From NCBI GenBank assembly GCA_013204385.1, contig JABMNY010000003.1, positions 14,270 to 78,269 of the forward strand: a stretch of DNA of 64,000 bases. Direction: 5' to 3'. The translations under genes and the position numbers were made by a program. Shown one piece after another: positions 11,307-60,036 of this stretch (its first letter is position 1; the number at the start of each line of letters is the position of its first letter). The stretch comes from Candidatus Uhrbacteria bacterium (GTDB lineage: Bacteria > Patescibacteriota > Patescibacteriia > UBA9934 > GWF2-40-263). Below the pieces are notes generated by a model. The model did not search any database. It had not been told where the DNA came from and saw only the letters and a list, made by a program, of their open reading frames with translations.

Positions 11307-11336
11307 AATTGATTGAATAAGTGAATAATATATTGA

Positions 11337-11465
11337 GAGACTTCTGAAAAAGTGATGGATTTTCGTTAAACGGGCTGCTGAGATCGTGAACCCTACTCAA
11401 ATGTAGGGAGAACGGAATCAGCGGGTGCCCGTGAGACGAAAAGACGCGCTTTTACAGAGGTCTCT
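11337..11465 (-). repeat. 129-nt element with ~10-15 nt terminal inverted repeats (copy A), filling rplJ-rplL intergenic space and abutting rplJ stop codon
   Basis: ~90% identical (as reverse complement) to 59843-59969; ends AGAGACYTCTG...CAGARGTCTC; internal hairpin CCCTAC-N6-GTAGGG. Confidence 0.6.
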
Positions 11466-11987
11466 TTACGCCTTTGCTTCTTTGATCGCACTAAGAACGT
11501 AAACGAATTTACGGAGATTTCCTGCAAGAACATTAACGAATCCAGAGATTGGTGCGTTGAGTGTTCCAACGAGCTGTCCAAGTAATTGTTCTCTGCTTGG
11601 TAAGGTTGCAAGTTGTTGAATGGCCTCTTTTGAGACAAACTGTCCCTCGAGAATTCCTCCAACAATGGAGATTGTGTCACGACCTTTTGAAAACTCAGCC
11701 ATGAGTTTTGCGGCTGCGACTTCATCATCGAACCCGAATGTGGTGAGAATACTGCCTTCCAAATCATCTCTTGTGATTGGGAATCCATTTTTCTCAAGCG
11801 CACGTACGAGAAGAGATTTTTTTGCGATGAGAAGTTCTACTCCAACGGAGCGACCTTTTTCACGCAGAGTGTTTGCATCTTCCATGGTATATCCAGCGAC
11901 GCTGGTAAACACCACAGATTTCATGCTTGTGAGCTTCTCCGCAAGCCCATCAACAATCTCTGACTTCTGTACACGTGTTTTTGGCAT
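11466..11987 (-). CDS. rplJ: 50S ribosomal protein L10
   Basis: 173 aa MPKTRVQKSEIVDGLAEKL... Confidence 0.95.
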   Translation of the reverse strand: MPKTRVQKSEIVDGLAEKLTSMKSVVFTSVAGYTMEDANTLREKGRSVGVELLIAKKSLLVRALEKNGFPITRDDLEGSILTTFGFDDEVAAAKLMAEFSKGRDTISIVGGILEGQFVSKEAIQQLATLPSREQLLGQLVGTLNAPISGFVNVLAGNLRKFVYVLSAIKEAKA

Positions 11988-25327: not shown

Positions 25328-25459
25328 TGTTGCCTCAGGTTAACAAAATTTTGACCGCTTGTCATCGCATAGAGTGGGGATGAGTTCGGGATAATTGCCT
25401 GAACCCTTGATCTTTTTGTATTTCTAAGCTATGTTCTAGCGTTCTTTGGAGGATGGAAC

Positions 25460-26118: not shown

Positions 26119-26943
26119 ATGTTTGCTCTTCTCACACTTGCTTCACGAGCTGCTCAGATGGGTGGAAGATCTCTTGTAGACTTCCGTACGCGTGGTCTCT
26201 CCCTAGAGACCACGAAAAAGCCTGATGGCACGCTCGTCACAGAGGCAGACGCTCGAGCGTCTCGAATCATTCAACGGGTCTTGAAGGCTGGCGATCCTTA
26301 TGCATTCATCCTTGATGAGGAGGCTGTAAACACACATGACCTCGAGCGCCCTAAGTACTTCTGGATCGTGGATCCACTCGATGGAACAAGTGCGTTTATC
26401 GAAGGAGCCGACACCTTCTGTACAATGATCGCACGCATGCAAGGGAATATCCCTGTATTGGGAGTGATCTACTTCCCTGTGAGCAACACGCTCTTCTGGG
26501 GTGGGTACCGACAAGGTGCGTGGATGAAAGTCGGTGATCAACCAGCGAGAGAACTTTCTGGTCGACGCATCCAGCTCATGGAGCAGGTGCGTATGACCAC
26601 CCCCACAAAAGTTGTGACGCGCGCCCTTTTCATGCGCATCGCTCAATCGCTCAATGTTCAAGCGGTTGAGATCGACCAACCGTCTGGTGGTCTCTATACC
26701 GGCATACTCAACAATGGACATGACCTTGTTATCACTCGACCTGGTAGACCAGCCGTCTGGGATACCGCTGCAGGCCACGCCATCCTCCTTGCTGCTGGCG
26801 GGAAGATCGTCGATTTGCATGGCGACCCACTCAACTACCAAGAAGGCACTCACTTGAAATACGGATCCGTCGCCGTGATCGATCCGAGTCTTCTTCCTGT
26901 GATCCTGCACCAACTTCCTCCTCGCAACGAACTCATCCCTTGA
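26119..26943 (+). CDS. Inositol monophosphatase / CysQ-family 3'(2'),5'-bisphosphate nucleotidase
   Basis: WIVDPLDGTSAF, DEEAV.. metal-binding motifs. Confidence 0.8.
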   Translation: MFALLTLASRAAQMGGRSLVDFRTRGLSLETTKKPDGTLVTEADARASRIIQRVLKAGDPYAFILDEEAVNTHDLERPKYFWIVDPLDGTSAFIEGADTFCTMIARMQGNIPVLGVIYFPVSNTLFWGGYRQGAWMKVGDQPARELSGRRIQLMEQVRMTTPTKVVTRALFMRIAQSLNVQAVEIDQPSGGLYTGILNNGHDLVITRPGRPAVWDTAAGHAILLAAGGKIVDLHGDPLNYQEGTHLKYGSVAVIDPSLLPVILHQLPPRNELIP

Positions 26944-26947
26944 TGAA

Positions 26948-26985
26948 ACGCTCGCTCAGCCCACTTGGACTGAGCGTTTTTTATT
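26948..26985 (+). terminator. Intrinsic terminator after IMPase-family gene
   Basis: cgctcagcccacttggactgagcg + TTTTTTATT. Confidence 0.7.
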
Positions 26986-27042
26986 ATCCATCTTTGTCTC
27001 CCAACAACGATACAAAACGTGTGTGTGAAATTTTGGAGAAAT

Positions 27043-27224
27043 GGTGGTGGTCAAGGTATTGCAAGACTTGGCCTGGCTCCACCATTCGTCAGTAAATTCT
27101 CTCTCTTCTAGCAACACTCAACAGGGTGGAAATAAATTTAGGTGTGCCGGTGGTAGTCAAGATATTGTAAGACTTGGCCCGGTTCCGCCGAAGCACCTCA
27201 ATTTATTTCCACCCTGTTGAGTTA
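27043..27224. repeat. Two related ~41-nt hairpins (conserved loops TATTGYAAGA) with the second embedded in a 22-bp long-range inverted repeat
   Basis: ggtggtggtcaaggtattgcaagacttggcctggctccacc vs ggtggtagtcaagatattgtaagacttggcccggttccgcc; actcaacagggtggaaataaatt / aatttatttccaccctgttgagt. Confidence 0.5.
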
Positions 27225-27244
27225 TCCCCACCCCACCCCTTGCG

Positions 27245-27288
27245 TTCGGTTTTTGTTCGGTTCATAATACGAACATAAAGCGAACACC
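27245..27288. promoter_or_regulatory. 44-nt imperfect dyad (GTTCGG-N5-GTTCGG...CGAACA-N5-CGAACA) 15-55 nt upstream of lexA: candidate LexA autoregulatory operator(s)
   Basis: gttcggtttttgttcggttcataatacgaacataaagcgaaca; inner GTTC-N7-GAAC. Confidence 0.4.
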
Positions 27289-27302
27289 TAACGAGATACT
27301 GT

Positions 27303-27917
27303 ATGCCACAACTCACAAAAAAACAGTCAGCTGTGCTCGCGTTCATTCGCACACACATTGAAGAGAACGGGTATGCCCCCTCCTACAGAGAAATCGCTGA
27401 CGCATTCGGACTCTCTTCCCCCGCAACCATTCATGGCCATGTCCAGTCTCTCGTTGAAAAAGGACTTATCGTAAATGGAGATGATGGTGAAGCACGTTCA
27501 ATTGAACTCGTTCAAGAAGCCGCATCAGGATCCTCTATCCTTCTCCCCTTCATCGGACTCATTACCGCAGGAGAACCAATAGAAGCTGTCCAAGATAATG
27601 AAACGATGGCTGTCCCTGTAGACTTTGTTCTCGATGGTGCCAACTCATTTGTCTTACGTGTAAAAGGACGCTCCATGATTGAAGACGGAATTCTTGATGG
27701 AGACTATGTTGTCATCGAACGTAATCCTTCCCCACGTAACGGAGAGGTTGTCGTCGCACTTCTGGACAATGCCTTTGCAACGCTCAAGCGTTTTTACCGA
27801 GAGACAAATCGTATTCGTCTTCAACCAGCCAACAGCTCAATGGATCCAATCTACGTCCAAGACTGCATTATCCAAGGGGTGGTCCGAGCCGTCATCAGAA
27901 AGTTCCAACCCATCTAA
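27303..27917 (+). CDS. lexA: LexA repressor
   Basis: N-terminal wHTH; C-terminal S24 peptidase with Ala-Gly cleavage site region and Ser...Lys dyad (VKGRSM...ATLKR). Confidence 0.9.
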   Translation: MPQLTKKQSAVLAFIRTHIEENGYAPSYREIADAFGLSSPATIHGHVQSLVEKGLIVNGDDGEARSIELVQEAASGSSILLPFIGLITAGEPIEAVQDNETMAVPVDFVLDGANSFVLRVKGRSMIEDGILDGDYVVIERNPSPRNGEVVVALLDNAFATLKRFYRETNRIRLQPANSSMDPIYVQDCIIQGVVRAVIRKFQPI

Positions 27918-28380
27918 TAATAACATCCAACCGTCCTTAGACTCGCGAAGCTAAGGACGGTCACCAGCTGACAATTTGAGATCCCATGATGAGACGCGTA
28001 AGGGATCACGCGTCTGACCGTGGGATTTTAGTTTGCCAATTTTCAGAATCATCGAGGCTAAAGGTCTCGCTACAATACGCGGTAACAGAGAAGACGTTAT
28101 TCTGCTTCGCTCAGAATCGTCACGCTCGTGAAACCCTCATTGTGGCCTGACCTTCATCCTTTGATGAACCTGATCCCTTAATTCACTTACTCTTTACGTT
28201 CTATGTCTACCGCCACTACACTACGCCACCACTCCAACACATTCGCCTTCCTTCCACGACAACGGGATCAACGTTTCATCAAGAGTCTTCGTGCGATCAA
28301 AATCCGAACGAGTCGCCGAAAAATCAGACAAGTCATTCGTCAAATGATCGACCACCGATCACTTAGCACCATCTAATCCT

Positions 28381-28629
28381 ATGCACGAAATGCTTAACGA
28401 TCCTATAGACGTCACTGTCGCATTCAAAGATAATCGCGTCTTTCCACGCACCATGAGATGGAACGAACGTGACTACAAAATCGAAACCGTAAACCTTGTG
28501 CATACCGCTCGCGAAGGTCAAAAACGTATATTCTATTTCTCTGTGTCAGACACAACAAATTATTTCAAACTCAAACTCGACCCAGAAATGCTCGAATGGC
28601 GATTAGTCGAACTCTATACAGATGGATAA
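28381..28629 (+). CDS. Hypothetical 82-aa protein in SOS neighbourhood
   Basis: ORF only; no motif recognised. Confidence 0.4.
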   Translation: MHEMLNDPIDVTVAFKDNRVFPRTMRWNERDYKIETVNLVHTAREGQKRIFYFSVSDTTNYFKLKLDPEMLEWRLVELYTDG

Positions 28630-28650
28630 GAAAAAAGCACCTGATAGGTG

Positions 28651-29133
28651 CTAGCTGAGCGTATGTTCGAAATGAATGTTCGAACCTTTGACGGGTCTGA
28701 ACCCAAGCTTCTCGTAGAGGATTCGTGCCCCCTCACGTTCCTCCTCGGAAACGAGCTTGAGCAGAGAGATCTTTGGACGCACCTCCCCTGCCTGTTCGAT
28801 CAAATGTTCCATGACAGCGCGACCAAGCCCGCGACCTTCTCCGCGAAACTCAGGGTGCACCAGAACATATTCAACGTCCCCAACCCCCTTGCGCCAGTCG
28901 TAGCTGATCTTGAGCAAAGCAACAGCAACAATCTGTCGCGCACCTTTCTCTCGAATAATGCTAATGCGCGTTCGATTTGGATCCATGAGACGCGCCTGAA
29001 ACAGCGCGTCTTTGTAGTCGAGTGGACCCGACCGAAGCAGATCTTGCCCATGCTCATTCAGGAACGTTATGCAGTCTCGATAATCCCAGAGTTGAGCTTT
29101 CGAGTGAACAAATCGTTCTGGATCAAATGCCAT
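28651..29133 (-). CDS. GNAT-family N-acetyltransferase
   Basis: Start at MAFDPERF with GGAGGTG RBS; VHPEFRGEGRGLGRAVMEHLIE acetyl-CoA motif A. Confidence 0.75.
   Translation of the reverse strand: MAFDPERFVHSKAQLWDYRDCITFLNEHGQDLLRSGPLDYKDALFQARLMDPNRTRISIIREKGARQIVAVALLKISYDWRKGVGDVEYVLVHPEFRGEGRGLGRAVMEHLIEQAGEVRPKISLLKLVSEEEREGARILYEKLGFRPVKGSNIHFEHTLS
29106..29118. promoter_or_regulatory. GAAC-N5-GTTC palindrome ~65 nt upstream of dinB start: candidate Cheo-like SOS box
   Basis: gaacaaatcgttc. Confidence 0.35.
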
Positions 29134-29182
29134 GAGACACCTCCGTATACAAACCCTAACATTCCAGAGCACATCGTCAACT

Positions 29183-30388
29183 ATGCATCGCATCATCCTT
29201 CACATTGACATGAACTCGTACTTTGCCTCTGTAGAGCAACAGGCGAACCCTTTTTTGCGTGGAAAACCGATTGGGATTACAGGAAAAGACCAAGAGCGCT
29301 CCGTCGTCGCAACCGCCTCTATTGAAGCTAAGAAACTTGGGGTGAAGACCGCTATGTCTACCTGGGAAGCAAAGAAGATTTGCCCTTCACTTATTCTCTA
29401 TGCCGGCGACCCAGAAAAGTACTCAGACATCATGCATCGCTTCAACGCAATTTACCAGGAGTTCACTCCACATGTGGAACCATTCAGTGTAGATGAAAGT
29501 TTTTTAGATATAACAGAAGAGGCGGAAGATTTTTTTGGAGCGACGTATATGGCTCAAATGATCCGTACACGTCTTAAAGAAGAACTCGGGAATCACATCA
29601 CCGCCTCCATCGGTATTGCCCCAAACAAACTCATGGCAAAGCTTGCGTGTGAGACTGTGAAACCAAGTGGACTCACTGTTGTTCAACCAGAAGAACTTAT
29701 CGACTTGTTGAACCGTTGTAAACTTGATGACCTCTGCGGAATCGGTCCCCGTATTCTTAAACGTTTACACGCACTTGATATTAAAACATTCGCAGAACTA
29801 CGTGCATGCCCACTTGAGGATCTTCAACGTGAATTTAAGAGCTACGGTCTTTGGCTTCACGAAGCCGCTTACGGACGAGACTCTTCACAAGGAGTGAATG
29901 CGAATTCTTCAGACGCAAAATCTTACGGACATTCCTATACACTGCCAGAGAATACTCAAGATCAAACAGTACTCAAACGTTATCTCTTTGGACTCGCCGA
30001 CAAAGTTGGTTGGCGCATGCGTCGAGATGGAGTTGTTGCGCGTCGCATTACCGCCCATGTGCGGTTTGGAGATTTTACAAGTCATAGTGAACAACGAACG
30101 GTGAATACTCCAACAGCAGACGGCATGGATCTTTTTAAAATTTCCTGGAACATCGTAAAACCCCTACTCACAAGCGATGTACGTCTTGTCGGTCTCTCCG
30201 CCTCTATGCTTACAAAAAATCCTAGCCAACCGTCCCTATTCAAAAAAGAACGGAACATGCAGTCCGTCCTATGTGCGCTCGATTCTCTCCAACACCGCTA
30301 TGGCACAGGTGTCTGGAAACGAGGTGCAACACTCCCCCTCAACCTCAAACAACGCTCAAGCGGCTTCCATTTTGATCATGAAGTGTAG
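29183..30388 (+). CDS. dinB: DNA polymerase IV (Y-family)
   Basis: Start at MHRIILHIDMNSYFASVEQ; SVDESFLD catalytic motif. Confidence 0.9.
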   Translation: MHRIILHIDMNSYFASVEQQANPFLRGKPIGITGKDQERSVVATASIEAKKLGVKTAMSTWEAKKICPSLILYAGDPEKYSDIMHRFNAIYQEFTPHVEPFSVDESFLDITEEAEDFFGATYMAQMIRTRLKEELGNHITASIGIAPNKLMAKLACETVKPSGLTVVQPEELIDLLNRCKLDDLCGIGPRILKRLHALDIKTFAELRACPLEDLQREFKSYGLWLHEAAYGRDSSQGVNANSSDAKSYGHSYTLPENTQDQTVLKRYLFGLADKVGWRMRRDGVVARRITAHVRFGDFTSHSEQRTVNTPTADGMDLFKISWNIVKPLLTSDVRLVGLSASMLTKNPSQPSLFKKERNMQSVLCALDSLQHRYGTGVWKRGATLPLNLKQRSSGFHFDHEV

Positions 30389-32815: not shown

Positions 32816-34904
32816 TATCTCTTAAAAAACTCATTCCGGTGGTTGGTTTCTTTTTCACGCGTTCTCCTAAATCATCAAACACAATCGTGGGTCCCTCATC
32901 GACCCACTCATCGTTTGAGAACGATCCGTACGAAGGCTTTGACACACTCGCCTTTAATTTAATCTCTTCTAAAAGCTCCCTTGGAAGCTCTTGTAAGAAC
33001 ATCGAAGGCTGACTAAGCATGAGTGTATCGTATCCAGAGGTAATCGGATAGGTATAAAACAAATGCTTTTTGGCTCGTGTTGTGGCGACATAAAAGAGTC
33101 GTCGCTCTTCCTCAAGTCCTCCTTTTTCATCAAGTGCCGCTCCAATTGGGAACTTTCCGTCAACGAGATGCATGATAAAGACCGCAGACCACTCCAATCC
33201 TTTTGACTGATGAATTGTAGAAAGCACCATCTTCTCTTCTTCAAACACGCTCCCATCCTCACGGAGTGCTCCATACTCCCCTGTGAGCGCGACCTCATCT
33301 AGGAATTTCTGCAAACTTGTATATCCTTCCGCAAACAGGGCAAACTGTTCGATATCCTCAAGACGATCCATAAAATCAGGATACTCCGCCTCGATGTAGT
33401 CTCGATAGTCTCCCGTGACAACAGCGCGAATGAGCTCCGAAGGTCGTTCTTCATCCCTCATGAGTACAAGGGTCTTTGCAAGATTATTCCATCCAATCTG
33501 TGCACGCTTTGGAACACGCGGCTGTGAATGCAAAATTTCATCAAGAGTCGTGAATTGTTTGAACACGGATGCCATTTTTTCCGCAGTCACAAGTCCGACA
33601 CCTGGAATCAATGAGAGAACGCGCATCCACGCCATCTCGTCTTTTGGATTCATTTTCACCCGCAAATGCGCAACCAGATCTTTCACATGCGCGCGCTCAA
33701 AGAACTTGAGTCCCCCGCGATACTCATACGGAATATCTCTACGCATCAATTCAAACTCCAACTGCTGAGAATGAAATGCTGCACGAAACAACACGGCTGT
33801 TTCTGAAAGCGGAACCCCCTCGTCCCGCAGGGCTAAAATGCGCTGTGCAATAAACTGTGCTTCTTGTGCCGCATTCTGTGCTGGCACAATGTTTGGTTTC
33901 TCAAAAGACGCCAGAACGGCCCCAAGTTCTTTTTTAAACTGTTCTCGATTTTGAAGAATCGTATTGTTTGCGACCGCCAAAATCTCAGGGGTGGAACGAT
34001 AGTTCGTAACAAGTCGAAATGTTTTTGTATTGTTGTAGGTTTGCGGAAACCCAAGAATATTCTTGATCTCTGCCGCACGAAAAGAATAAATCGACTGTGC
34101 ATCGTCTCCGACCACTAATACATTTCCATGTACACTCGCAAGCTGTCGAATAATATCCGCTTGAATGACATTCGTATCCTGATACTCATCCACCAAGATA
34201 TACTCAAACTGCTGTCCGAGTCTTTGACGCACCCCCTCGTTTGTAAACAACAGCTCTCGCAACTTCAAAAGCAGATCATCAAAATCCATCGAATCTGACT
34301 CACGCTTGCGAGACGCATACAGTTCCGCAATACGCTCAATCGTCGAACTCATCTCAATAAAACTTGGATAGCGCGTCTCAAGCACATCGATCATCGGTTG
34401 CCCAGAGTTTTTCGCGTAACTAATAATTCCATTGAGCTTAGCTGGCGATGGAAATCGTCGTGAAGTGGTATCGATCTTAAGCGCCTTGATACAGACCTTC
34501 ACTAGTGCCTTTGCGTCTTCCTGATCGAGAATTGTGAAGTTCGATGTGTGCCCAATCTCAGGAGCGTAAATCCGAAGCAGTCTGTTCGCAATCGAATGGA
34601 ACGTTCCACCCCACAATCCTTTGGGTTTACGACCAAGCAAACTCTCCACGCGCTCCATCATTTCTTTTGCCGCCTTGTTCGTAAACGTCACAAGCAAAAT
34701 ACTCTCTGGACTCACCCCTCGCTCAAGCAAATACGCCACACGATAGGTAATGGTCCGAGTCTTTCCGGACCCTGCCCCTGCCAACACGAGAGCTGGCCCA
34801 TCCCCATGCAAAACCACCTCTAATTGCTCCGCATTCAATTCCTTTTGATAATCAATGTTTGCCTTCGATAGGTCAAAATCATCATGTAACACGAATTCTT
34901 TCAT
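32802..34904 (-). CDS. uvrD: ATP-dependent DNA helicase UvrD/PcrA
   Basis: Walker A GAGSGKTRTITYRVAYLL, helicase motifs; ORF-track start is a TTG; chose ATG (MKEFVLH). Confidence 0.9.
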   Translation of the reverse strand: MKEFVLHDDFDLSKANIDYQKELNAEQLEVVLHGDGPALVLAGAGSGKTRTITYRVAYLLERGVSPESILLVTFTNKAAKEMMERVESLLGRKPKGLWGGTFHSIANRLLRIYAPEIGHTSNFTILDQEDAKALVKVCIKALKIDTTSRRFPSPAKLNGIISYAKNSGQPMIDVLETRYPSFIEMSSTIERIAELYASRKRESDSMDFDDLLLKLRELLFTNEGVRQRLGQQFEYILVDEYQDTNVIQADIIRQLASVHGNVLVVGDDAQSIYSFRAAEIKNILGFPQTYNNTKTFRLVTNYRSTPEILAVANNTILQNREQFKKELGAVLASFEKPNIVPAQNAAQEAQFIAQRILALRDEGVPLSETAVLFRAAFHSQQLEFELMRRDIPYEYRGGLKFFERAHVKDLVAHLRVKMNPKDEMAWMRVLSLIPGVGLVTAEKMASVFKQFTTLDEILHSQPRVPKRAQIGWNNLAKTLVLMRDEERPSELIRAVVTGDYRDYIEAEYPDFMDRLEDIEQFALFAEGYTSLQKFLDEVALTGEYGALREDGSVFEEEKMVLSTIHQSKGLEWSAVFIMHLVDGKFPIGAALDEKGGLEEERRLFYVATTRAKKHLFYTYPITSGYDTLMLSQPSMFLQELPRELLEEIKLKASVSKPSYGSFSNDEWVDEGPTIVFDDLGERVKKKPTTGMSFLRDIDEL

Positions 34905-34912
34905 ACCCAGCA

Positions 34913-34985
34913 AGACAACTTTTTAGATAACAATCCGAATGCCCATTTGCAAGATATCTTTCTTTAAATAAAGAAAAAGTTGTCT
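34913..34985. promoter_or_regulatory. 12-bp perfect inverted repeat (agacaacttttt / aaaaagttgtct) separated by 49 nt, ending 9 nt upstream of uvrD start
   Basis: seen directly in divergent uvrD / small-peptide intergenic region. Confidence 0.4.
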
Positions 34986-35030
34986 TACTGAGCATAGCCG
35001 TGCCATTTTAGCATACAACCCTGTTTGGAT

Positions 35031-35059
35031 TGACAAAATCAAGATTTTCAGGTATAAAA
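35031..35059 (+). promoter_or_regulatory. Consensus-like promoter TTGACA-N17-TATAAA for small peptide gene
   Basis: ttgacaaaatcaagattttcaggtataaa; GGAG RBS upstream of ATG 35113. Confidence 0.5.
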
Positions 35060-35112
35060 TCGTCTCGATTCTGGAAAATCCTCACCCCCCCAGTAAATCG
35101 AGTGGAGACCTC

Positions 35113-35253
35113 ATGAACGGATGGACCGCAGCAACAGTGATCACTCTCACGATCGTGGTCGGAATGGTCGCATGGTTGACCAACGAACCCTGGGTCGCAT
35201 TGGCATTCCTCCTGCCCGCAGGAATTGCCTGGCAAGCAGTCTTTAGTCGCTGA
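35113..35253 (+). CDS. 46-aa hydrophobic (two-helix) membrane peptide, below ORF-track threshold
   Basis: MNGWTAATVITLTIVVGMVAWLTNEPWVALAFLLPAGIAWQAVFSR; own promoter, RBS and terminator; ~56% GC. Confidence 0.45.
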   Translation: MNGWTAATVITLTIVVGMVAWLTNEPWVALAFLLPAGIAWQAVFSR

Positions 35254-35255
35254 CC

Positions 35256-35336
35256 TGACTGCACACTCCCAGCGACCAACGGCAACCTGCCCACCTTAGC
35301 TTTTCGAGCAACGGTGGGTTTTTTCTTTTTCAAAAA
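35256..35336 (+). terminator. Tandem hairpins + U-tract terminator module (ACCTGCCCACC..AGCT.TTCGAGC.ACGGTGGGTTTT) plus duplicated dcd-leader-like segment ending in ATG
   Basis: ~70 nt similar to 61650-61746. Confidence 0.55.
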
Positions 35337-35398
35337 ATTCCTGGCTACCATAAATATGGACTCAATAAAGTTGTAATTTCGACTAACGACTTATCAAG

Positions 35399-35500
35399 AA
35401 AACTCAACCAGGTCGGGGGCTGAGCCGCCGACAAATTAGGGAAAATAAAAACCCTTCGCCAGAGCGAGGGGTGTGCGTTTAGTCCTGTATAGAGTCGGAT
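35399..35500 (-). terminator. Terminator (cccttcgcc-agag-cgaggg + U-tract) and conserved 34-nt module downstream of 441-aa gene
   Basis: reverse complement of module at 21404-21450. Confidence 0.5.
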
Positions 35501-35516
35501 GTGGTGACCTTGTTGG

Positions 35517-36842
35517 TCACAGTGGAGCGCAGGCGAGTTTGAGCTCGGTCTGCATGGTCTTGAGATCAGGTCCCCCGTCGATGAGTTTCCTCATGAGTGC
35601 CTCGACGGCGAGGTGAATGCGCGGAAGGACACGTGGAAGGACGGGACGTTTGAACCCGTGTTCGAGCTTTCTCGCCGTACGTGGATCAACATGCGCAAGA
35701 CGGCGATGGATCGCGAGAAGTTCTTCTTTGTACATCAGTTGCTCGGATGCCCCGATGTCTTGTTTGCGATCTTCCAGAATTCCCACTTGGAGCAGGACCT
35801 CTTCAAGACGTCGGTGACAATCCATCTGAATCATCGCGCGATAGACGCGTCCGATGACATCCTTGGACTGGTCCACATATTGACCATCACTCGCAGTCGC
35901 AGCCTGACGCAGAAGTTGTGCCGCTTCATCGAGATCGTCCGCACAGCGATTGAACGAACGCGAGAACGGTCGGGAGACGATTGCTCGCAAGCGCTGTGCT
36001 TCGAACTCTATTTGACCAGCTTCCTTTCGAACAGAATTGGGAGTCCGTTTCAGAGGAACCAACCACTCCCCACGCAGACGATGCTCTTGACTTCGAGACA
36101 CATCACGCGAGATCTCGTGCAAGCGATCGATGTAGTGCTCAAGCACCACCTCGCGGAAACTCATCCGACGACCGATACCACGTACTGCTTGGATGCGCGA
36201 GGCAACCTTGTTCTCACCCGCAAAGCAGATGAGTGGAATCCGTCCTGGATTGAAACGACCGATTGAGTCGATCACAGAACCAGCTTGGAGCGTTCGCTGT
36301 TGAGCCATGACTTTCGTCTCGTCGATTGGCTTCCCGTATGCCTTGGCAGCACGCACCGCGATGAGCACGAACGACGATTGTCCTTCCTCATCGACCTTGC
36401 GCAATTCCCACGAGTATTTCATCAGCTCATCGAGTGTCCCCGCGAGCTTCTTGTTCGCCGGAATCTCGCGTGAGCGATATCGTCGATCAATCTTCCCAAG
36501 ACCACGACGCGCCTTGAAGACCCCATCGAATGACTGAAAGCACTGATCGACCTGGCTCTCGATAGGTCCGCCACTGAGACGTTCACTGACTTTCATATTT
36601 CGACTCAGGATACTTCCCGGCCGAAGTTCTCGAACATCTTTCGCCAACTCGTGACAGTCCATTGGGACTTCGTACAAGCAATGCGGAATAAGTTCGATGA
36701 GCTTGGCACCCGTAAGCACCAACGGCTCAATCTTGGGTTCGCCCTTTTTGCGACGACGACGATTCCGCAGAACCGTCAGGTCCCGGACGATGATTCTTGG
36801 CTCTTGTGGATCTGGCCACACGAACGAAAAAGGAACGGTCAC
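35517..36842 (-). CDS. 441-aa Arg-rich orphan protein, GTG start, no recognisable catalytic motif
   Basis: Longest ORF in a ~58% GC segment; AGGAGG-N5-GTG; own TTGACA-N17/18-TAATTT promoter and structured ~75-nt 5' UTR. Confidence 0.6.
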   Translation of the reverse strand: MTVPFSFVWPDPQEPRIIVRDLTVLRNRRRRKKGEPKIEPLVLTGAKLIELIPHCLYEVPMDCHELAKDVRELRPGSILSRNMKVSERLSGGPIESQVDQCFQSFDGVFKARRGLGKIDRRYRSREIPANKKLAGTLDELMKYSWELRKVDEEGQSSFVLIAVRAAKAYGKPIDETKVMAQQRTLQAGSVIDSIGRFNPGRIPLICFAGENKVASRIQAVRGIGRRMSFREVVLEHYIDRLHEISRDVSRSQEHRLRGEWLVPLKRTPNSVRKEAGQIEFEAQRLRAIVSRPFSRSFNRCADDLDEAAQLLRQAATASDGQYVDQSKDVIGRVYRAMIQMDCHRRLEEVLLQVGILEDRKQDIGASEQLMYKEELLAIHRRLAHVDPRTARKLEHGFKRPVLPRVLPRIHLAVEALMRKLIDGGPDLKTMQTELKLACAPL

Positions 36843-46604: not shown

Positions 46605-46684
46605 AGAAAAATGAAATGATTATCGTCAGTATTTTATCACTCTTTGCTCGAAACAAAAAACAGGGTCGGAACCCTGTTTTTTGT

Positions 46685-59419: not shown

Positions 59420-59842
59420 ATGGCAAAAAAACTTGTTACTCAAATCAAATTGCAGGTTCCAGGTGGAGCAGCAACTCCAGCCCCTCCAATTGGACCAGCG
59501 CTTGGACAGCATGGTCTCCCTATTCAAGAGTTCGTTGTTCGTTTTAACAACGACACACAAGATCGACGTGGAGAAATTGTTCCAGTGGTCATCTCTGTGT
59601 ACGACGATCGAACATTCGACTTCATTTTAAAGACTGCCCCGGCGTCTGACATGATTTTGAAAGCAGCGGGCATCAAAAAAGGATCAGGAAATCCTTTGAC
59701 GACAAAAGTTGGATCTATCACCCAGGCGCAACTCAAAGAAATCGCAGAGAAGAAAATGCCTGACCTCAATACAAATGACACAGAAGCTGCCATGAAAATC
59801 ATTGCAGGGACCTGTCGTCAGATGGGAGTCGAAATCAAGTAG
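59420..59842 (+). CDS. rplK: 50S ribosomal protein L11
   Basis: [29 protein letters not shown]. Confidence 0.95.
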
Positions 59843-59969
59843 AGACCTCTACAAAAGCGCGTCTTTTCGTCTCACGGGCACCCGCTGACCCCGTTCTCCC
59901 TACGTTTTAGTAGGGTTCTCGGTTTCAGCAGCCCGTTCAACGAAAATCCATCACTTTTTCAGAGGTCTC
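59843..59969 (+). repeat. 129-nt terminal-inverted-repeat element (copy B) between rplK stop and rplA
   Basis: agagacctctacaaaag...ctttttcagaggtctc; ~90% identical to reverse complement of 11337-11465. Confidence 0.6.
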
Positions 59970-60036
59970 GTAAGTCTAATCATTCATTACTGTGGGAGGT
60001 GTGAGATACTCTCAGACCGACCGAACCACTACCTGT

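Follow-up and report, generated by a model that had tools for sequence, protein, structure and literature searches.

What kind of sequence is the highly structured, non-coding segment that lies directly upstream of lexA in this genome, and does it take any part in the control of that gene? We examined the segment within a contiguous stretch of 64 kb (hereafter the window), which LexA homologs assign to Candidatus Uhrbacteria (Patescibacteria/CPR). We know of no experimental work on SOS control in these uncultured organisms. The original prediction had named a small RNA gene, a protein-binding array and a degenerate MITE as possible identities for the segment. The account that we lean towards is close to the last of these: a palindromic insertion of the MITE type that is specific to this lineage and either an orphan or present in few copies; it may also consist of two such elements, adjacent or duplicated. 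The downstream gene is lexA, as predicted (PF01726, PF00717), and the features of the locus are collected in Table 1.

Table 1. Layout of the lexA upstream region, in coordinates of the window.
Feature	Position	Strand	Basis or detail
Inositol-monophosphatase-family gene, upstream of the segment	26119-26943	+	PF00459
Intrinsic terminator of the inositol-monophosphatase-family gene	26953-26982	+	11-bp stem 26953-26963/26966-26976, then TTTTTT 26977-26982
Left TTATCC copy, putative target-site duplication (first 6 nt of the conserved box)	26984-26989		Comparison with L085 and L172
Lineage-specific non-coding insertion of 232 bp, two ~107-nt tandem units	26990-27221	+	Not in relatives' lexA loci; unit-unit alignment
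Hairpin A, degenerate unit holding DR1; 21-nt arms, 71% complementarity	27027-27099	+	Inverted repeat and fold
Hairpin B, 107-nt near-perfect palindrome holding DR2 (27149-27189)	27116-27222	+	Inverted repeat and fold
Conserved box TTATCCCCA, consensus TTATCC[A/C]CA, fits DnaA-box consensus	27222-27230	+	58 of ~60 operator-bearing loci
Predicted lexA promoter within palindromic operator	27240-27285	+	Hexamers and spacing; near-invariant in relatives
lexA, 204 aa	27303-27917	+	PF01726 and PF00717

The segment is repetitive at two scales. DR1, which occupies exactly the position originally given for it (27043-27083), and DR2 (27149-27189) are direct repeats of 41 nt with a period of 106 nt, and the paired hairpin repeats described there are real. 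The two copies are only ~85% identical; all six differences between them are transitions, and the apical stem (6 bp) is invariant. Without gaps, the direct repeat reaches 56 nt (27028-27083 versus 27134-27189, 79% identity), and with gaps it extends over 26991-27083 and 27098-27189, giving a local alignment score of 72 compared with 19.9 +/- 3.3 (maximum 35) for 300 shuffled sequences. The segment as a whole consists of two tandem units, 26991-27097 and 27098-27221, each of ~107 nt.

Each unit contributes one hairpin. Hairpin A folds with 29 pairs, five of them G-U, at -23.3 kcal/mol, and hairpin B with 41 pairs, three of them G-U, at -63.0 kcal/mol, the latter closing on an 11-nt apical loop, AUAUUGUAAGA. 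The long-range inverted repeat that had been noticed around DR2 is present, but its outer stem is perfect over 23 bp (27116-27138/27200-27222) rather than 22 bp; the arms of hairpin B extend to 38 nt (87% complementarity) around 31 nt of intervening sequence. It is the largest inverted repeat in the 64-kb window. The finer pairing first proposed for both repeats (GGTGG/CCACC outer, GUCAAG/CUUGGC inner with a U-G pair, and an 11-nt loop) is that of the minimum-free-energy fold for DR2, whereas for DR1 it is a feasible alternative only. Folding of 27020-27235 gave -88.5 kcal/mol on the + strand (z = -6.9 versus shuffles) and -76.2 kcal/mol on the - strand (z = -4.7), bearing out the description of the segment as highly structured, and it ranks among the two most stable 120-nt windows in the 64 kb. 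Three further assemblies, made from different samples, contain the identical sequence (L002, L176 and, in part, L177), and the segment is therefore no assembly artefact.

We compared the locus with 80 lexA loci from species-representative genomes and with six from the closest LexA relatives. Where the relatives have an upstream gene on the same strand (L085, L172/L174, L017 and L010), its terminator T-run is followed, after 1-2 nt, by TTATCC[A/C]CA; in L085 and L172/L174, LexA is 90% identical to that of the window and the upstream gene is the same. The order in the window is T-run, A, TTATCC, 232 nt and then TTATCCCCA (TTATCCCCACCC). Because the T-run directly adjoins the box in the relatives, the insertion can be delimited to 26990-27221, between 6-bp direct repeats. 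In the closest relatives (L083, L084, L003 and L175, with LexA 91-94% identical), metK lies upstream in divergent orientation at a distance of 76-82 nt, and the element is absent. It is likewise missing from the orthologous site in all the syntenic and non-syntenic relatives that we examined, and a collection of 5.8 billion proteins contained no relative above 94% LexA identity. The upstream site of lexA is thus in a derived, inserted state in this lineage. A lack of conservation in relatives had been named in advance as evidence against the original prediction and, on conservation, the outcome goes against a small RNA gene.

The TTATCC at the two edges of the insertion (26984-26989 and 27222-27227) agrees with the empty sites of L085, L172 and L017, and the conserved box begins with the right-hand copy. 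The two copies may represent a 6-bp target duplication; we estimate the chance of the 6-mer recurring within the ~20 nt after the terminator at ~0.5%, and the duplication could be a coincidence. Unit B taken alone has no flanking target duplication.

The hairpin segment stops exactly at the 5' edge of the box, which places it upstream of the lexA promoter and outside the leader. In 58 of ~60 operator-bearing lexA loci (L003-L085), the spacing between box and operator is fixed: most loci have 20-22 nt, ~14 have 41-45 nt and a single one has 35 nt, with a difference of about two helical turns between the two main classes. From the box onward, the order of elements is almost invariant across the relatives, with ~10 nt leading to CTTGCGTTCGGTTTTTGTTCGG and then ATACGAACATAAAGCGAACA. 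Judged by hexamers and spacing, the predicted lexA promoter comprises a -35 element TTGCGT (27240-27245), a 17-nt spacer and a -10 element CATAAT (27263-27268), and the LexA operator reads GTTCN7GTTC then GAACN7GAAC (27244-27285). The control region as a whole is a 42-bp palindrome of two GTTCGN6GTTCG direct repeats, inverted relative to each other; TTGCGT and CATAAT sit inside it, and it is near-invariant across Uhrbacteria. This arrangement of half-sites resembles the GTTC-N7-GTTC type of LexA motif described for Alphaproteobacteria (PMC8565304).

Neither the conserved box nor the promoter hexamers nor the LexA operator is disrupted by the insertion, which appears to leave the control of lexA intact. 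Since these elements are untouched, the insertion marks the 5' boundary of the sequence that the lexA promoter needs. The box itself has only three matches in the 64 kb, the level expected by chance, and is therefore no general promoter element; as a DnaA-box-like site beside the insertion, it is a candidate regulatory element in its own right. A replication origin was considered here and rejected, there being a single box and a cumulative GC skew that is monotonic across the window. Downstream of lexA (27303-30388) lie a conserved 82-aa ORF without a Pfam match, a GNAT acetyltransferase gene on the opposite strand and a gene for a DinB-type (IMS family) polymerase, a cluster that is kept in the closest relatives except that L083 shows no GNAT gene.

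We then searched for homologs of the insertion and found none in the DNA that was covered. BLASTN with a word size of 7 gave no match in 431 kb around the lexA genes of more than 80 Uhrbacteria and other Patescibacteria genomes, and a covariance model built from both units found nothing better than E = 0.5 in 490 kb of Uhrbacteria DNA. Within the window, a genome-wide copy search having been proposed at the outset, the 25-nt core of the repeat and the outer arm occur nowhere else (no matches are expected in shuffles), and neither BLASTN nor nhmmer recovered related sequence from the rest of the 64 kb; a single match at E = 0.002 (46623-46671) adjoins a terminator and has the AACAGGGT motif in common with the query. 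Exact-core scans gave no matches in 185,579 species-representative genomes (GTDB), five in JGI metagenomes, and 70, 10 and one in collections of viral contigs, none of them with common flanks; the viral matches are redundant phage coding sequences, encoding for example GGGQDI or K-[VIL]-L-x-D-L peptides. The element was not found in phage and plasmid collections. The proposed scan against Rfam (release 15) yielded nothing over the window at gathering thresholds and, for 26900-27350 at E <= 10, only microRNA and snoRNA noise.

The insertion also carries no coding, promoter or terminator signals. The only ORF across the repeats (59 aa) has no Pfam match, and their 106-nt offset puts the two repeats into different reading frames of it; a coding repeat was accordingly rejected, the translations being GGGQGIARLGLAPP and GGSQDIVRLGPVPP. 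Scans of the segment for sigma-70-like promoters and intrinsic terminators found none, and neither hairpin is followed by a U-run. For hairpin B, the intrinsic-terminator test was negative on both strands, the sequence 3' of the stem being UAUCCCC (+ strand) and GUUGCUAG (- strand). ARAGORN found no tRNA or tmRNA in the window, and an origin from such a gene was set aside.

These results bear on the idea that the segment works as RNA, either as a small RNA gene or as a cis-acting read-through RNA on the + strand, specific to the lineage, whose hairpins present the 11-nt loop (G/A)UAUUG(C/U)AAGA. Pairing is indeed well preserved between the two units: the + strand folds better than the - strand (-88.5 versus -76.2 kcal/mol), both units retain U-G pairs, the proportion of paired cells over 24 pairs is 91.7% compared with 31-48% in slid registers, and four pairs (4 of 18 in mid-stem) have changed on both sides. 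The restriction of the six differences between the 41-nt repeats to transitions, together with the invariant apical stem, fits the same picture. The four compensatory changes and the perfect 23-bp stem, in units that have diverged by ~20%, hint weakly that pairing may have been maintained. However, the covariation is weak with two sequences: there was no homolog among the relatives to align, and in the comparison of one unit with the other, 31 of 500 shuffles reached the observed value. Such covariation is, moreover, equally expected of DNA palindromes (through templated repair) or of matched transposon ends, and the asymmetry in wobble pairs between the strands of hairpin B (3 versus 2) is uninformative. 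Further against an RNA, neither a promoter nor a terminator of its own was found, the upstream gene ends in a good terminator, the lexA promoter lies downstream of the segment, Rfam and covariance-model searches gave no match, and every relative examined, including the syntenic ones, lacks it. We therefore regard a structured RNA of any kind as improbable, and the small-RNA reading in particular is not supported.

A further set of readings would assign the hairpins to a known class of recombination site or array, such as an integron attC site, a two-repeat CRISPR remnant, or a hairpin pair of the IS200/IS605 or REP type. Two similar hairpins do lie in direct orientation 106 nt apart, and hairpin B resembles attC sites as an imperfect palindrome of ~107 nt whose ends, ACTCAAC (27116-27122) and GTTGAGT (27216-27222), fit RYYYAAC/GTTRRRY, a fit with a chance of ~1 in 1000 per palindrome end. 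In other bacteria, integron integrases are under the control of LexA. With 23 base pairs perfectly matched, however, the stem has neither the extrahelical bases nor the unpaired central spacer between R and L boxes of an attC site, and with no integrase and no cassettes membership in that class was rejected. A CRISPR array is disfavoured too: the repeats are only ~85% identical, no Cas domains were detected, and the sequence between the repeats is homologous in the two units and hence is no CRISPR spacer. A diversity-generating retroelement was also rejected, in the absence of adenine specificity among the differences and of any reverse transcriptase. More generally, a search of the ~60 ORFs of the window against Pfam found no transposase, integrase, Cas protein, reverse transcriptase, HUH enzyme or Y1 transposase, and the hairpins occupy a single site with no cassette array. 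We consider it extremely unlikely that the segment belongs to any of these classes of recombination site or array.

In the MITE-type account that we lean towards, a non-coding segment of 232 bp (26990-27221) would have inserted in this lineage precisely where the box begins on its 5' side, in an event that may have duplicated 6 bp of target, TTATCC. The segment would be made up of two tandem, diverged copies of a ~107-bp hairpin module, of which the promoter-proximal copy is a near-perfect palindrome, and it probably has no dedicated cellular function and would count as selfish or accidental DNA. We propose that the insertion could persist because it spares the box, the -35/-10 hexamers and the LexA operator, and because transcription of the upstream gene ends at a separate terminator. 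Both transposition as the mechanism of insertion and the neutrality of the insertion are inferred.

Compared with what is typical of MITEs, the insertion is short (232 bp, where < ~600 bp is usual) and non-coding, but it lacks terminal inverted repeats. The 23-38-bp inverted repeat bounds unit B only (27116-27222), and the left end of the insertion, ATCTTTGTCTCCCAAC..., matches the inverse of the right end no further than CTC..AACA. As unit B has no duplication of its own, the inverted repeat and the duplication are not paired as they are in a textbook MITE. No other copy was found in the 64-kb window, the part of the source genome that was searched, or in 431 kb of relatives. Membership in the MITE class is thus not established, since copy number is known for the window only and the inverted repeat and the duplication bound different segments. 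Of the three identities originally proposed, a degenerate MITE nonetheless comes closest to the evidence: the segment is palindromic and non-coding, represents a derived insertion, may be flanked by a 6-bp target duplication, and belongs to a genome with a real MITE family. The lack of a second copy in the DNA searched and an inverted repeat lying away from the insertion ends leave membership unproven.

Families of small palindromic intergenic repeats are known from other bacteria, among them Correia/NEMIS elements in Neisseria, ERIC in enterobacteria and BOX, with its boxB module, in pneumococci. Like them, the insertion is short, non-coding and able to form a hairpin; it is likewise intergenic, placed just after a terminator, absent from the orthologous site in relatives and possibly flanked by a short duplication. 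The modular tandem duplication of boxB is comparable with its internal units. Unlike these families, which have tens to hundreds of copies each, the insertion is known from one locus, its inverted repeat is not terminal, and no cognate transposase was seen.

The MITE family in the same window provides a closer comparison. Its two copies there (11335-11466 and 59841-59970, 91.5% identical) are ~130 nt long, have the terminal repeat GAGACCTCT(A/G)(C/T)AAAAG and form one long hairpin (z = -9.3) without a match in Rfam. Both lie inside ribosomal-protein operons, where one copy separates rplJ from a probable rplL and the other rplK from rplA, and their orientation relative to the operon is the same. 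Other copies are present at L004:2360-2489, L022:1941-2056, L043:4209-4367, L036:79-251, L048:698-740 and L021:4962-5002, that of L004 being in the 5' UTR of lexA, between the LexA operator and the start codon. The family and the insertion share a genome, a similar size per hairpin (130 versus 107 nt) and an extreme fold (z ~ -9), but they have no sequence similarity, and the family is multi-copy in at least seven genomes whereas the insertion has no other copy. The family also serves as a positive control, in that it was readily detected under the same sampling and copies of the insertion were not.

The main rival to an insertion of the MITE type is generation of the palindrome in place. Here, tandem duplication or slippage in the spacer upstream of the promoter would have been followed by template switching or fold-back synthesis, and quasi-palindrome correction would have kept the arms matched. 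The segment is a complete orphan, with no copy anywhere that was searched, which favours such an origin, and a perfect 23-bp outer stem in the face of ~20% divergence between units fits recent templated correction. The insertion resembles template-switch quasi-palindromes in having perfect outer and imperfect inner arms, compensatory changes, and partial copies of adjacent native sequence: its right arm contains TTATTTCCACCC, in agreement at 10 of 12 positions with the adjacent native TTATCCCCACCC that begins 19 nt further downstream, and the inverse is found in the left arm. Additionally, unrelated long hairpins adjoin the same box in other Uhrbacteria, with arms made of local repeats of ~8 nt; in L051, for example, GACTTTAT occurs twice and is followed by GACTCAAC and then GACTTATCCACA, and L025, L035 and L011 are alike in this respect. 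Pure template switching, however, would not be expected to leave a flanking direct duplication or to bring in 232 nt of largely foreign sequence, which apart from the 12-mer shows no similarity to its neighbourhood, and the TTATCC flanks are more in keeping with insertion at a staggered cut. Across loci, box-like sequences are weakly enriched upstream of the box (40 observed versus 23.9 expected), in a count that is confounded by metK coding sequence. We thus hold a local origin to be possible but unlikely.

The proximity of the segment to the box raises the question of whether it acts on lexA as DNA. The insertion abuts exactly a box that is strongly conserved at fixed phase (58 of ~60 loci), and its arms hold the box-like sequences TTATTTCCA and TGGAAATAA. 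It might therefore form a cis-regulatory array, in which the arms add two inverted, degenerate boxes, or in which an extrudable hairpin modulates a putative, possibly DnaA-like, box factor and through it the expression of lexA. Each of the two box copies, however, carries two mismatches, ~0.4 such copies are expected by chance, and they represent a single event owing to the symmetry of the arms. The protein-binding array of the original prediction comes down to these copies, one degenerate box per hairpin arm, which is not significant. A wider array of extra boxes was not supported, the excess of box-like 9-mers upstream of the box across the 58 loci (40 versus 23.9 expected) being weak and confounded. 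A long distance between palindrome arms disfavours cruciform extrusion in duplex DNA, and here 61 nt separate the perfect arms.

We also assessed the 140 nt upstream of the box across the 58 loci for hairpins as such. Folding is strong (z < -3) in eight of them, namely the window, L008, L016, L025, L032, L035, L051 and L053, with the window the most extreme at -9.2; the sequences of these hairpins are unrelated. Strong hairpins next to the box in eight lineages would favour a cis-regulatory array, yet the other 50 lack one. With only 8 of 58 loci reaching z < -3, a box-adjacent hairpin was rejected as a conserved feature, and its sporadic occurrence fits a hypervariable spacer that accepts insertions. 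We judge the cis-regulatory array to be quite improbable. In a related proposal, box-adjacent hairpins that arose independently would be a selected structural cis-element, with a single-strand or cruciform hairpin tuning the access of the box factor under replication stress or a change in supercoiling. Were this so, replication status would be coupled to SOS control, and the 107-nt palindrome of the window would be the most extreme example; we think it very unlikely.

The insertion, which is most likely of the MITE type, documents that Candidatus Uhrbacteria, as CPR bacteria with small genomes, can accommodate large palindromic insertions directly upstream of a key stress-response promoter. 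As it stands this matters little, and it would matter more if the hairpin were transcribed or altered the expression of lexA.

Several minor observations concern hairpins and repeats elsewhere. Unrelated long hairpins occur around the lexA promoter in L011 (2400-2500) and L008 (2350-2400), and 100-150 nt upstream of the box in L051, L035 and L025. The arms of the unrelated Uhrbacteria hairpins are tandem repeats of ~8 nt, such as AGTAGCAG/AGTAGAAG or GTGGGGAG/GTGGGAAG. In L007 (2430-2445, CGTTGAGTTATCCACA), GTTGAG stands directly 5' of the box, as it does at the end of the right arm of the window hairpin (27215-27230). LexA of L007 is 85% identical and its upstream gene is a different one; we put the probability of this match arising by chance at ~1-2% across the loci examined, an estimate made post hoc. 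The hairpin arms of L051 also hold ACTCAAC and GTTGAGT. Elsewhere in the window, a gene-free stretch of 600 nt (34913-35517) has significant predicted structure on the - strand (z = -4.8), with an inverted repeat of 22-nt arms in or at it (34903-34995) and nothing meaningful in Rfam.

Finally, a conserved leader motif, CATCCCCA..TGCGATGACA....TTTGGTATTCTG, was noticed upstream of metK on the metK strand, at 25330-25400 of the window (- strand) and also between metK and lexA in L003, L004, L007, L009, L013-L015 and L083. A comparison with Rfam gave nothing at E <= 1 for this motif, and it could be a riboswitch-like or other regulatory element. In L025 and L035, where metK is divergent, the hairpin read on the metK strand terminates with a U-run immediately ahead of the metK start codon.
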